Positions 34,893-39,212 of a DNA stretch of 45,617 nt are shown piece after piece. Location of the stretch: sequence record OP966821.1; one strand, written 5' to 3'. Source of the stretch: Pseudomonas phage Fyn8. The notes under the pieces were generated by a model, which ran no database searches, had not been told where the DNA came from, and was given only the letters and a program-made list of their open reading frames with translations. Each line of letters begins with the position of its first letter. The stretch's first letter is position 1. Made by a program: the position numbers and the translations under genes.

Positions 34893-35396
34893 TCATCCCC
34901 ACCTCGCTGAACTGGTGTAGATCGCTTCCAGGTACTGGTCGCAGATGCGTTTGGCCCGCTCACACCGGTCAACGTCGAAGAGTCCGAAGTGGCATTCGGG
35001 CGGCGTGATTTGGAGTTCAGCGGCGAGCCAGGCGTAGGCCTGACTGCGCGTCATCAGCTTGTCGCGCCAGATGCGTTCGAATGGGCGCTTGCAGCGGTTG
35101 CGAGCGTCGCGCAGCGGCTTGTCGGCCAGCGTTCCCAGCGGGATGTCGGTGTCGGGATGCAGGCCCACGTAAGCGCCGCAGCCCGTGCCAGTACAGGCGT
35201 AGGCGTATGGCCAGTCGCCGTACTCGCGACCGTAGATCACCCGGTTGCTGACCAGCCGGACCAGGCCGCCGCAGTGCGGGCAGCCGGAGGGGATTGGCTG
35301 AGGATGCTTGATGCGCTTGAGCGCGCCGCGGCTGACGTGGGGCAGCGGTGCCGGCGGCACCAGTTTCTCCAGGCTGTTCGCTCGTGGGTCGATCAT
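34893..35396 (-). CDS. Zn-ribbon protein (DUF3268-like)
   Basis: CPHCGG...CTGTGCGAY and a second pair CHFG...C; 167 aa. Confidence 0.5.
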   Translation of the reverse strand: MIDPRANSLEKLVPPAPLPHVSRGALKRIKHPQPIPSGCPHCGGLVRLVSNRVIYGREYGDWPYAYACTGTGCGAYVGLHPDTDIPLGTLADKPLRDARNRCKRPFERIWRDKLMTRSQAYAWLAAELQITPPECHFGLFDVDRCERAKRICDQYLEAIYTSSARWG

Positions 35397-35537
35397 GGCG
35401 TGTGCTCCGTATTCACCTGCATTCGGCTGAACGCTCGCGCCGCCGGGCTTGCCCGGCGGGGAGGCGGGGAACGTTCATGCGAATGTGGGCGGTGAAAAAA
35501 GCCCGGCCGTAGCCGGGCAAGGGGGGATGAAACGGGC

Positions 35538-35909
35538 TCAGGAAACAGCAGTGCAGTTGCGCAGCAGCACCGGCGTGGCCTGACCTTCTAGCCAGATCAC
35601 CGCCATGCCGGAGGCGGAAACTTTGGCTTGAGTGAGCGTTCTGGTGCGGATGGGGATGGAGTCGCGGAGCGGACGGTACTCAACGGCCACCTGGGCCGGG
35701 TGCGTGCGATTCCACTCTTCAACCAGGTCTTTGGGTGAGGCGGGCCGGACGGCGCCAACCCGGGCGTAGATCTCGGCGCGATGAATGGCCATCGCTTCCG
35801 GAGCAACGATTCCGAGGCGGATCTGGCCGCCTCTGTTCTCGACGACGGTCACGGTGATGTCGTCGCCAATGTGCAGGGTTTCGCCGACTCGGCGAGTGAG
35901 GATCAGCAT
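35538..35909 (-). CDS. CsrA/RsmA-family RNA-binding protein fused to a 70-aa C-terminal domain of unknown function
   Basis: N-terminus [48 protein letters not shown] matches E. coli CsrA / P. aeruginosa RsmA, including the conserved R44 context; residues about 54-123 are paralogous to the product of the adjacent gene at 35944-36156. Confidence 0.7.
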
Positions 35910-35943
35910 GTGTGCCTCCGTTCAGGATGCTGGGCGCGCGGGC

Positions 35944-36156
35944 TCAGGCCGGCTCGCAGTGGGAAAGGGCAACGCAACCGGACACGCCAGCGAGCCAGAC
36001 GACAGCAGTGTGTCCGCCGAGCACCTGGGCTTCGGTTGTCGTCCGGGTGCGTTTCGGCGTTGCGCCGCGATGGAACCGGTAATCGACCTCGGTGCCGGCG
36101 GGGTATGCGGAATTCCAGGCAGCAACGGTCGCCGCCGGGTTGGCGTTTCGCTTCAT
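35944..36156 (-). CDS. Small protein (70 aa) paralogous to the C-terminal domain of the CsrA-fusion protein
   Basis: ATG at 36156 with SD GGAGATA; aligns with the fusion C-terminus (WNxxxPA..V.YR..R...P.RTRT.T.A.V.....AV.WL.G....V.L..C); first gene downstream of PL. Confidence 0.4.
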   Translation of the reverse strand: MKRNANPAATVAAWNSAYPAGTEVDYRFHRGATPKRTRTTTEAQVLGGHTAVVWLAGVSGCVALSHCEPA

Positions 36157-36465
36157 CGGGTATCTCCGGATAGATTGCGATGGGGCTGGTCTGCAGTCCC
36201 GGCGAACCGGGGCGTGTTGACTTCTTCGATGCCCCTCTTGCGAAGGGCATCTGAGAAATCTTGGTGTTTCTCGCAAACCCTCACGCCGGTAGCCGGTGGT
36301 GAGCGCATTGCGCATTTCGTACCGTCCAACAGGTCTCACTTGCCTACCTCCGCAAACGATGCCCGATTGCAGAAGCGTTACTGGCGCCTGTTGGCTCATG
36401 TCTGGTTGTTAAAGAGCGGTCGGCTCGGTGGCCTGGCGCTGCGTTGTTCTGCGGCGTTGAGGTGA

Positions 36466-36494
36466 AATTTAGAAAACTAAACGGTTAAGGTCAA
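36466..36494 (-). promoter_or_regulatory. PL-like early leftward promoter: -35 TTGACC (36494-36489), 17-bp spacer, -10 TAAATT (36471-36466)
   Basis: Near-consensus sigma70 elements on the minus strand, overlapped and flanked by operator repeats; mirrors PR. Confidence 0.55.
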
Positions 36495-36516
36495 GGGATT
36501 TTTTTAGAAATCTAAA
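36468..36516. promoter_or_regulatory. OL operators: TTTAG-AAAA-CTAAA (36468-36481) and TTTAG-AAAT-CTAAA (36503-36516)
   Basis: Same inverted-repeat motif as at OR (TTTAG-N4-CTAAA); the first overlaps the PL -10. Confidence 0.55.
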
Positions 36517-36540
36517 CTTTTGGGTTGGGCGGGCACAAAA

Positions 36541-36565
36541 AAGCCCGCGCTAGGCGGGCTCTGTC
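36541..36565 (-). terminator. Rho-independent terminator downstream of the lipoprotein moron (minus strand)
   Basis: Minus strand reads GAGCCCGCC-tagc-GCGGGCTTTTTT. Confidence 0.65.
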
Positions 36566-36581
36566 CCTCTGGTTAGGGGTG

Positions 36582-37070
36582 TTACCGTGTGAGCATCTCG
36601 CGAAGCTTCACACCATCAGCGATGCTCACGACCTTGGCCACTACGCCTCCTTGGGGGAGGAGTCCGTACTTCGATGGCGCTTGCCAAGTGACGGTTGAAC
36701 TGAGGAAGTAGTCGCCTGGCGGGATGTCCGTGAATTTGAAGTTTCCGTTCCCATCCGCCACCGTAGTGATGGACCCCTGTCCTGATCGAGGATCTGGCGC
36801 CTCAAGCGCTTGTCCTCCTATATAGTTCACTTCGTACCACTGTTTCGAATAGGACGTAACGGGGACTAGGTAAACTGTGCTCCCTGCACCGAATTTCACA
36901 TCTCCACCAACGGTCTTCATAAAGACCTGGCCAGTCAATGTGCCAGTCCCTTTTGTCGGAAGAGCGGCAAATTCAGCAGCAGGGAATGGAATTCTCGGGA
37001 CCGGCGTTTGTTGAGATACGGCACAACCTGACAGCATGATCATTATTGCTGCTATGGCGATTAAACGCAT
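36582..37070 (-). CDS. Secreted lipoprotein (moron next to the repressor gene); carboxypeptidase-regulatory-like beta-sandwich motif
   Basis: 162 aa from the ATG at 37070 with SD AGGAGG; signal peptide plus lipobox LSGC; GC lower than flanking DNA (about 52%); own terminator. Confidence 0.6.
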   Translation of the reverse strand: MRLIAIAAIMIMLSGCAVSQQTPVPRIPFPAAEFAALPTKGTGTLTGQVFMKTVGGDVKFGAGSTVYLVPVTSYSKQWYEVNYIGGQALEAPDPRSGQGSITTVADGNGNFKFTDIPPGDYFLSSTVTWQAPSKYGLLPQGGVVAKVVSIADGVKLREMLTR

Positions 37071-37117
37071 GAAACCTCCTTGATTATCAAAAAGCCCGAG
37101 TGCCGGTCGGCACCTGA

Positions 37118-37783
37118 CTACATCGCGCCGCCACGCCAAACGATACGACCGATAATGTCTACGCCGCGCATACCATCATCAGTGACAGGCTGGTCTGGGT
37201 ATCGATTTTTGTCCTGGTTATCCGACCGAATTAGCCATCCTCCCGATATCTCACGGATAAGGCGCTTGAAGATCACCTCTTGGTCGGCATCATACAGGGC
37301 GAACATTTTCCCATTCGTCGGCTCCTTGCAGGAAACATCTATCAGGACGACCTCTCCGTCGGAGAGGGTTGGCCAGTTGCTATCTCCCTGGTTGTAGGCT
37401 GCGCGAAGATTTTCAGCCCTTAGCCCCATCCGTCGAAGCCAGTCGCGCTTAAATGCCAACCCGCCCTTGACCTCAACATGATCGTTTAGGTAGCCATTTC
37501 CTGACGAACCCTTAGCAGTGAGCTGGGGAATAAGCGCGTAGTCGGCCTCTGAAGGAGACCCTTCATGTGAGGGCAGATCCTTTTCTCCCTTCCCAGTTTC
37601 CAGCCATGAGGCGCTGCATTGAAGCACCTTGGCCAAGGCAATCAGGTTCTTCCCTCTGGCCTTGTTGGTGCCATTGGTCCAGTGGGAGAGGGTCCCCTTG
37701 GAGACCTTGATCTCTCTGGAGATGTCCGAGGCGCTGATGCCTAAGGCATCCATGCGCTGATTGAGTCTGTCTGAAAAGTCCAT
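37118..37783 (-). CDS. cI: CI-like prophage repressor (N-terminal HTH-XRE, C-terminal LexA/S24 peptidase)
   Basis: 221 aa with HTH (SKGTLSHWTNG) and a C-terminal S24 domain with the Ser...Lys dyad context (GDSNWP...KRL). Confidence 0.85.
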   Translation of the reverse strand: MDFSDRLNQRMDALGISASDISREIKVSKGTLSHWTNGTNKARGKNLIALAKVLQCSASWLETGKGEKDLPSHEGSPSEADYALIPQLTAKGSSGNGYLNDHVEVKGGLAFKRDWLRRMGLRAENLRAAYNQGDSNWPTLSDGEVVLIDVSCKEPTNGKMFALYDADQEVIFKRLIREISGGWLIRSDNQDKNRYPDQPVTDDGMRGVDIIGRIVWRGGAM

Positions 37784-37784
37784 G

Positions 37785-37845
37785 TTTAGGATTCTAAATC
37801 CTTGTTGGTTTAGATAACTTGCACACGGCTGTTTATTTTTCTAAA
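37785..37845. promoter_or_regulatory. OR operators, three TTTAG-N4-CTAAA-type sites: 37785-37798 (perfect, TTTAG-GATT-CTAAA), 37809-37822 (degenerate), 37832-37845 (TTTAT-TTTT-CTAAA)
   Basis: Inverted-repeat motif shared with OL; spacing about 23-24 bp; sites overlap the PR -35 and -10. Confidence 0.55.
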
Positions 37846-37846
37846 C
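37818..37846 (+). promoter_or_regulatory. PR-like early rightward promoter: -35 TTGCAC, 17-bp spacer, -10 TAAACT
   Basis: sigma70-like elements 27 nt upstream of the cro start and overlapped by operator half-sites. Confidence 0.5.
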
Positions 37847-37872
37847 TCCAGCAAAACCATGGAGGCAGCCGT

Positions 37873-38070
37873 ATGAATTACGAACAGGCGCTCACCCACT
37901 TCGGAACAGGGCGAGCGATTGCAAAGGCCCTAGGCGTAAGCCCTGGGCGAATTTCTCAGTGCAAATCGGAAGGTGGGTTTTCCTATCAGCATCAGTGCGT
38001 CCTGGAGAAGGCATCCTCTGGCGCGCTTCAGGCCCGTGAAGAAGACGAGCCTCAGCGGATGGCGTCTTGA
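37873..38070 (+). CDS. cro: Cro-like HTH regulator (YdaS/Cro family)
   Basis: 65 aa from the ATG at 37873 with SD GGAGG; divergent from cI; HTH (RAIAKALGVSPGRISQ). Confidence 0.6.
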   Translation: MNYEQALTHFGTGRAIAKALGVSPGRISQCKSEGGFSYQHQCVLEKASSGALQAREEDEPQRMAS

Positions 38071-38459: not shown

Positions 38460-39212
38460 ATGCATCAGATTATCCACGGCAATACCGAAACCGTCGTTCC
38501 GAAAAATGCGAACCACGACTTCGTGGCGCGCAAAATGAGCACCCTCAAGCTGCGCGATCTCATCAATGATGCCCGCGCGGATGCTGGGGAGCCCAGGGTC
38601 AGGAATGATCAGTTTCTTGCTCGTGTCGAAGACGAGTTGGGTGATGAACTTGAGGGGGTGCAAAAATATTACACCCCCTTCCATGGAAACCAGGTCGCCG
38701 CCTACGACCTGACTCTTGACCAGTGCGTGCTGGTAGGGATGCGCGAATCTAAGTCGGTTCGCCGAACGGTATTGGCCAAACTGAAGTCCTTCGAGGCCCC
38801 TCGTGTTATTGCCACGCTCCCAGACTTCACCAACCCAGTAGTGGCAGCCCGCGCTTGGGCGGATGAGGTGGAGCAGAAACAGGTGGCCCAGCAAGCACTG
38901 GCGATTGCTGCGCCCAAAGCAGAGTTTGTCGACAAGTATGTCGAATCCACCGGGCTCAAGGGCTTTCGCCAAACCGCCAAGCTGCTGAGGGCCAATGAGG
39001 CCCGATTCCGTGAGTTCTTGCTCGACAAGAAGATCATGTATCGCATGGGCGGCGAGTGGCAGGCATACCAGAACCATATCGACGCTGGACGCTTCGCCGT
39101 CAAGACCGGCACAAGCGACAGCGGTCACGCCTTCAATCAAGCCAAATTTACCCCTAAGGGCGTCACCTGGGTGGCCGGCTTGTGGGCGCAGTACAACCTG
39201 GAGGCCCAATGA
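38460..39212 (+). CDS. KilA-C (ANT/KilAC) domain protein, putative anti-repressor
   Basis: C-terminal KilAC-like block (FREFLLDKKIMYR...WQAYQNHIDAGRFAVKT...GHAFNQAKFTPKGVTWVA). Confidence 0.5.
   Translation: MHQIIHGNTETVVPKNANHDFVARKMSTLKLRDLINDARADAGEPRVRNDQFLARVEDELGDELEGVQKYYTPFHGNQVAAYDLTLDQCVLVGMRESKSVRRTVLAKLKSFEAPRVIATLPDFTNPVVAARAWADEVEQKQVAQQALAIAAPKAEFVDKYVESTGLKGFRQTAKLLRANEARFREFLLDKKIMYRMGGEWQAYQNHIDAGRFAVKTGTSDSGHAFNQAKFTPKGVTWVAGLWAQYNLEAQ

Follow-up and report, generated by a model that had tools for sequence, protein, structure and literature searches.

What is the tail of a phage-borne CsrA protein for, and how does it relate to the look-alike gene encoded next to it? Pseudomonas phage Fyn8 (sequence record OP966821.1; the window analyzed here is the whole stretch of 45,617 nt) raises this question with two neighboring minus-strand genes: csrA-X, whose 123-aa product combines an N-terminal CsrA-family regulator with a C-terminal extension, and a small upstream gene for a stand-alone 70-aa protein resembling that extension. 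We use "X" as our label for both, and speak of fused X for the extension and of free X for its stand-alone paralog. The csrA-X product is an already known phage CsrA regulator—F116 gp24, a member of the RsmM subfamily, and a homolog of Bci—and our account of its identity, architecture, and evolutionary origin, namely a known regulator carrying a duplicated X domain, is very probably correct. That X acts as a docking module for a protein partner is a tentative proposal, which could easily prove wrong.

The N-terminal part of the protein is a CsrA domain, as the original prediction had it. Residues 1–51 match PF02599 (E 5.4e-22; 77.9 bits, cut-off 27) and exceed the cut-offs of two NCBIfam csrA equivalogs (NF002469, 80.6 vs 73; TIGR00202, 73.4 vs 70.1). 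The closest solved relative is 1vpz, titled 'Carbon storage regulator homolog' in the database, which aligns over residues 1–59 with ~63% identity over residues 1–51 (counted by hand) and which we take to be P. aeruginosa RsmA. In the alignment with 1vpz, 7yr6, and 2bti, residues 1–12 and H43-R44 are identical, with V40M and V42I as conservative changes. The RNA-contact residues—the N-terminal strand MLILTRR and the essential R44 of the HR.EIY motif—are kept, and they are invariant in the nine fusion alleles compared. An AlphaFold2 (AF2) monomer model places strands at residues 11–14, 18–26, and 29–35 and a helix at residues 44–53, the strands and helix expected of CsrA. By analogy with its family, the csrA-X product would act as a GGA-RNA-binding CsrA dimer. 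It differs from host RsmA (1vpz) and RsmE (2jpp), which have ~61–70 aa and no folded C-terminal domain. As a separate observation unrelated to the X fusion, a 140-aa protein from an ENA metagenome (P0047, on a 1.2-kb contig) harbors two tandem CsrA domains in one polypeptide and could be a single-chain 'dimer'.

The regulator has a published record. The window shares 824 nt at 99.6% DNA identity with Pseudomonas phage F116 (genus Hollowayvirus); the csrA-X product is identical to F116 gp24 (YP_164288.1), and free X is 100% identical to gp25 (YP_164289.1) by tblastn. Homology to F116 ends at ~36223, and the sequence upstream of free X differs, with p26–p28 in F116 and a lipoprotein gene in the Fyn8 window. 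F116 gp24 has been listed as a phage CsrA of the P. aeruginosa-specific, phage-borne subfamily RsmM, the extension of which was predicted to be structured (an extra helix plus two short strands) and suggested to be a protein-interaction scaffold (PMC7366521; Sobrero & Valverde 2020); the F116 CsrA homolog is also cited in PMC8450108. Over its full length and without gaps, the csrA-X product further shows 63% identity to Bci (QGF21359.1), which comprises CsrA residues 1–51 followed by the same X. All 123-aa homologs with a source name come from P. aeruginosa.

Bci, the 123-aa Bacteriophage Control Infection protein of the P. aeruginosa prophage AUS531phi, is induced by acyl-homoserine lactones and expressed in the prophage state (Ambroa et al. 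2020, PMC7546807). Upon infection with a bci-deletion phage, lasR, rhlR, and qscR were up ~5-fold and pqsR ~13-fold, while wild-type AUS531phi had higher infectivity, raised biofilm formation and pyocyanin, and lowered swarming; the deletion phage remained inducible and infective (PMC7546807). The idea that a temperate phage could rewire its host through an Rsm-family regulator, put forward in the original prediction, thus has experimental support from a homolog, and the Bci phenotypes are consistent with CsrA-X shifting host post-transcriptional control. Both bci and csrA-X are found in the early-left part of temperate P. aeruginosa phages. The former differs in being another allele of both core and X, and AUS531phi lacks free X and has a 194-aa open reading frame (ORF) on the opposite strand upstream of bci. 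The Bci paper does not analyze the C-terminal part of the protein (PMC7546807), and PMC7366521, PMC8450108, and PMC7546807 hold nothing on what the extension is or how it relates to the neighboring gene. In our literature search, we found no mention of homology between the extension and gp25 or of its membership in a large domain family.

The extension and the product of the adjacent gene are paralogs, which upholds the alignment proposed in the original prediction. The C-terminal 75 aa of the fusion and the 70-aa free X align over 65 positions without gaps (43% identity; BLASTP E 1e-17), and PHROG profiles cross-match the two: phrog_9165 on fusion residues 55–120 (E ~1e-11 to 4e-11), phrog_5527 on free X (E 2e-12), and phrog_9165 again on free X (E 4e-51). 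A profile built from non-Pseudomonas X members likewise aligned to fusion residues 56–122 by hhalign (probability 97.9%, E 6.6e-13). Pfam matched the 123-aa protein in its CsrA part and left X without a match in either protein; NCBIfam scans of both copies returned no named family, and the PHROG scan gave PHROG 9165 alone, the function of which is unannotated. Nor is the fusion a product of a split or frameshifted gene, since the same uninterrupted 123-codon frame is kept in divergent alleles down to 63–65% identity, with lengths of 122–123 aa.

Structure models point to an independent domain. For free X, AF2 predicted an N-terminal helix (residues 7–17) followed by five or six short strands, with a predicted local distance difference test (pLDDT) score of 90 and a predicted template-modeling score (pTM) of 0.73. 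In the model of the full-length fusion (pLDDT 88.5, pTM 0.55), the X part has the same helix-plus-strands topology at pLDDT 93–96, and the score dips to ~73–76 in residue blocks 41–60. The low linker pLDDT and the pTM of 0.55 suggest two separately folded domains on a short linker without fixed orientation. X is therefore predicted to be an autonomous helix-plus-SH3-like-barrel domain.

The two copies have fared differently. Near-invariant positions of the X family are N, G-T, Y, T, A, L-G-G-H-T-A-V-V-W, C, L, and H, and free X has the full signature (N15, G21, T39, A43, G48-H49-T50, W54, C61, L64, H66). In fused X, the equivalents of G21, G48, H49, T50, C61, and H66 are replaced in all nine alleles compared; retained are the hydrophobic core, the WN motif, the RTRT segment, and AV.W. 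The same nine alleles share 20 invariant positions in the extension, among them a fusion-specific patch of W106, E108-G109-Q110, P113, V114, L116, R117, and C119. Judged by sequence, free X is a typical family member and fused X a divergent, derived duplicate, which has probably changed what it binds. Fused X is under purifying selection: between the window allele and the AUS531phi allele, the ratio of non-synonymous to synonymous substitution rates (dN/dS) is 0.35 in the extra domain and 0.33 in the CsrA core. From locus to locus, alleles of the CsrA core are combined with different alleles of the X domain.

Natural recombinants confirm the paralogy at the DNA level. Two alleles (P0008 and P0009; L006 3001–3213 and L007 3001–3216) are stand-alone 70–71-aa hybrids of free X and the X domain of bci: their 5′ 150 nt are 91–93% identical to free X, their 3′ part is 95–98% identical to the 3′ end of AUS531phi-type bci, and the crossover lies at the shared RTRT codons. 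There is no CsrA gene in their loci; recombination between the paralogous copies has thus deleted exactly the CsrA core. In a third allele (P0006, 98 aa, P. aeruginosa), free X residues 1–56 continue in frame into the C-terminal portion of the DUF3268 protein (encoded at 34893–35396), the result of a deletion that removes the whole csrA-X gene. These alleles are natural knock-outs.

Beyond this locus, X represents a very large family of small domains that has no name and is spread over several phyla, in the early-gene arrays of phages and mobile elements. A profile search against 1.84 billion cluster representatives retrieved 3,092 members with an E-value limit of 1e-3 and 1,031 when the limit was tightened to 1e-10; metagenomic homologs are 49–58% identical to free X. 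In 146 of the listed matches, X stands alone (67), is C-terminal (41), N-terminal (29), or internal (9). The genes lie among densely packed, small, unannotated ORFs in viral contigs and in prophage-like or integrase-linked regions, with hosts that include Streptomyces, Nonomuraea, Streptosporangium, Paraburkholderia, Acidobacteria, Kiloniellaceae, and a delta-proteobacterium. None of the X-family loci examined from organisms other than P. aeruginosa and P. paraeruginosa had a CsrA gene or a second X copy within ±3 kb.

Only one solved-structure entry contains an X sequence: residues 334–393 of PDB 3g87 chain A match the X profile (E 3.5e-9). This 394-aa protein, annotated as a malonyl CoA-ACP transacylase, is the sole X partner seen that does not belong to a mobile element, and its X copy differs from the family signature in lacking the C and the second H. 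Searching the PDB with the X model in Foldseek missed 3g87, which thus gave no structural or functional insight—residues 334–393 may be unmodeled in the crystal—and our literature search found no paper mentioning 3G87. Elsewhere in the family, a 528-aa protein (P0156) has three X stretches in the large search, two of them passing a stricter re-scan, among zinc-ribbon-like CxxC pairs, which suggests that X is able to act in multiple copies.

Within P. aeruginosa, free X and the fusion co-occur asymmetrically. Free X has the fusion downstream on the same strand in 74/74 P. aeruginosa viral loci in IMG/VR, and all 34 free X records in the phage collection also carry the fusion (34/34). The spacing is ~37 nt in 49 of the 74 loci; in the other 25, the pairing persists across 0.45–1.1 kb of inserted DNA. 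Conversely, the fusion occurs without free X in 11/45 phage records and in 29/80 IMG/VR loci (the best-matching 80 of 197 matches), AUS531phi being among the fusion-only cases. Phage E220 encodes a fusion 100% identical to that of the window and, where free X would be expected, an unrelated 91-aa ORF. Because of such fusion-only loci, including E220 and AUS531phi, we conclude that the fusion does not need free X in order to function. Free X itself is nearly invariant (24 variants, differing at few N-terminal positions) and is paired with three very different types of fused-X allele; across the 74 loci, free X alleles showed no co-variation with fused X or core alleles, and truncated, internally deleted, and frameshifted free X alleles circulate. 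Free X may modulate the fusion facultatively; alternatively, tight linkage by descent may be all that keeps the two together.

The locus bears further traces of turnover. A frameshifted free X (variant X24; L101 3001–3209) and a fusion allele that has lost its stop and reads ~90 extra residues (variant F23) are signs of ongoing decay or remodeling. The 194-aa opposite-strand ORF (L039 3316–3900 (-), L003 2024–2608 (-)), with a PCPAC motif and no Pfam match, lies between free X and csrA-X in many prophages (as the insert in one inspected locus) and, in AUS531phi, next to bci on its upstream side; by its appearance, it is a further moron of this hot spot.

In the model that we propose, CsrA-X would dimerize via its CsrA core and bind GGA motifs in mRNA leaders of the host, and possibly of the phage, as expected from its family; this binding would shift quorum-sensing- and Gac/Rsm-controlled expression in the phage's favor. 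csrA-X and free X form a small cassette between the cI–lipoprotein unit and the early-left recombination genes, with a strong terminator of its own. Each subunit would carry a separately folded ~65-aa X, joined to the C-terminal helix by a linker of ~5 residues. Fused X very probably arose by duplication of, or recombination with, the neighboring free X gene; having lost polar residues of the family signature and gained an invariant patch of its own, it may have been re-purposed as a regulator-specific docking or interaction module, with a protein the more likely partner than an RNA. Free X would be a facultative accessory, not an obligate second component.

Several points weigh against this model. 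RNA binding and dimerization of CsrA-X are read across from the CsrA family, and the published Bci phenotypes may be indirect effects. As for X, no family member has an assigned binding partner or activity, Pfam and NCBIfam are empty for it, its structural neighbors in BFVD are all uncharacterized, and a Pfam scan of 73 multi-domain X members for fusion partners yielded Phage_zn_bind_8 twice, DUF4326 once, and nothing more. Moreover, free X in P. aeruginosa viral loci is never without a fusion downstream, even across foreign DNA, which fits a functional link that 'facultative accessory' may understate.

Such a link could mean a true two-component system, in which free X binds fused X or the CsrA core as a protein antagonist or activator. 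Protein antagonists of CsrA are known from Bacillus/Geobacillus CsrA-FliW and E. coli CsrA-CesT (5dmb, 5z38); in the FliW system, a C-terminal CsrA extension serves protein-level control (PMC7366521), the same logic that the original prediction proposed for CsrA-X. In the window, the genes are adjacent on the same strand, with free X upstream, 34 nt apart, and without a terminator between them in our terminator scan; the constant pairing across fusion alleles and insertions and the scaffold role suggested for the RsmM extension point the same way. However, X is unrelated to FliW in sequence and fold ranking, and what would play the part of FliW or CesT is here a paralog of the extension, which many phages do without. 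The arrangement is not supported as an obligate one, because the fusion occurs without free X, even in identical form in E220, and overall we consider a two-component system unlikely. Were X instead a second RNA-binding module (KOW, Tudor, or Sm-like) that changes CsrA RNA specificity or escapes RsmY/RsmZ titration, this would suit its fold neighbors, which include KOW domains (those of uL24 and NusG) and a PWWP domain from a structure with single-stranded DNA, the basic RTRT-containing segment conserved in both copies, and its attachment just behind the helix bordering the RNA-binding face of CsrA. With a net charge near zero, the X family gives no support for generic nucleic-acid binding; we regard an RNA-binding role as distinctly improbable.

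X might also tether CsrA to the transcription or translation machinery, as the Tudor/KOW-type domains of NusG, CarD, and Mfd do, perhaps serving the early-left operon as an N-like antiterminator. The position of the cassette—just downstream of cI, on the leftward strand, with a strong terminator ahead of the recombination genes—invites this thought, the fold class is common to RNA polymerase- and ribosome-binding barrels, and a spread across phyla would suit a universally conserved target. Yet X has no sequence-level similarity to any RNA polymerase-interacting domain, the bci-deletion phage is still inducible and infective (PMC7546807), natural prophage alleles without the CsrA core exist, F116 and PA8 have other small genes before X so that the position is not strictly N-like, and the leader shows no enrichment of GGA motifs (about 4 by reading vs about 7 expected by chance), leaving a tether very improbable. 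Equally little speaks for the extension being an accidental read-through fusion without function of its own: recombination between the two X copies does happen and damaged free X alleles circulate, but the extension evolves under the same constraint as the CsrA core, keeps its length in alleles down to 63% identity, shares its 20 invariant positions, including the EGQ..PV.LR.C patch, among nine alleles, and is confidently predicted as a folded domain in both AF2 models. An accident of this kind was already disfavored, and hardly any weight falls on it.

At the level described in the original prediction, the finding is real and known; as the regulator was already published, its rediscovery adds nothing. 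Measured against the papers cited above, our additions are modest: the extension belongs to a very large unnamed family, its fused copy is degenerate, co-occurrence with the free copy is asymmetric, and recombinant deletion alleles exist. The structural and evolutionary reading of the tail nonetheless offers a handle on an open question in CsrA biology, namely the role of the long C-terminal extensions of mobile-element CsrA paralogs. A defined ~65-aa domain, a free paralog, alleles with and without free X, and core-deleted recombinants amount to a ready-made genetic series, suited to asking whether phage CsrA proteins are controlled or targeted via protein partners. The analysis also draws attention to a large domain family that is frequent in early regions of phages and has no model in Pfam or NCBIfam. 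As a long shot, free and fused X could form a protein-level switch, through X–X contact or docking on the CsrA RNA face, that tunes action on host Rsm targets, with the X family more broadly serving as a general adaptor that delivers diverse effector modules to one conserved cellular target; if true, this would be a FliW-independent, paralog-based antagonist system for CsrA in a gamma-proteobacterial phage.

Features of the csrA-X locus in the Fyn8 window, with the evidence for each
Feature	Position	Strand	Evidence and remarks
csrA-X gene	35538..35909	(-)	uninterrupted 123-codon ORF; CsrA-family regulator with C-terminal extra domain, RsmM/Bci type
CsrA core, residues 1–53	35751..35909	(-)	PF02599, AF2 model, alignment to 1vpz
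Short inter-domain linker, residues 54–58 (AVRPA)	35736..35750	(-)	pLDDT dip
Fused X domain, residues 59–121	35547..35735	(-)	AF2, hhalign, BLASTP; divergent copy
Free X gene, 70-aa stand-alone paralog (F116 gp25)	35944..36156	(-)	ORF, ATG at 36156, GGAG Shine-Dalgarno
Intrinsic terminator (GCCCGGC-UACG-GCCGGGC then U6)	35495..35518	(-)	20 nt past the csrA-X stop; terminator scan and folding
Sigma-70-like promoter candidate (TTGACC-17-TAAATT), 5′ of free X	36466..36494	(-)	consensus scan; weak
Terminator-like hairpin and U-run at the end of the cI–lipoprotein unit	~36537..36560	(-)	read from the sequence, folding
Cro-like gene	37819-38070	(+)	
cI-type repressor gene	37118-37783	(-)	
Lipoprotein-like 185-aa ORF	36582-37139	(-)	overlaps the 3′ end of cI
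DUF3268 gene	34893-35396		after the csrA-X terminator (read leftward), with the early-left recombination genes

Read leftward, the order is Cro-like gene, cI, lipoprotein-like ORF, hairpin, promoter-like site, free X, csrA-X, terminator, DUF3268 gene, and recombination genes. The csrA-X terminator is predicted to be stable (fold energy -17.5 kcal/mol, z -3.6, 0/200 shuffles as stable), and the annotation of phage LKA5 has a terminator at the same place. The hairpin that separates the cI–lipoprotein unit from the X/csrA-X unit has a fold energy of -17.4 kcal/mol (z -2.2) and was not listed by the consensus terminator scan. The layout of free X and csrA-X resembles a moron, that is, an accessory cassette with its own promoter and terminator, the promoter here being a consensus match at 9/12 positions, no better than expected from shuffles. 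Autoregulation via GGA-presenting Shine-Dalgarno hairpins was considered and dropped, as neither hairpin is more stable than its shuffles (z -1.8 upstream of free X, +0.6 upstream of csrA-X). An Rfam scan of 35300–37300 for an Rsm-like sponge RNA or other element gave sub-threshold chance matches alone.

Two neighboring genes deserve mention. The 185-aa ORF has a lipoprotein-type signal sequence by reading (MRLIAIAAIMIMLSGC) and a weak CarboxypepD_reg match (E 0.004). It occupies the position of p26–p28 in F116, and vB_Pae_CF23a-type phages have it at 99% identity under the annotation 'hypothetical'; the gene is a candidate for a lysogen-expressed moron, e.g., for superinfection exclusion. Just right of a cII-like gene, the 250-aa product of 38460-39212 (+) contains an antirepressor domain of the KilAC type (PF03374, E 1e-24), an ordinary component of such phages.
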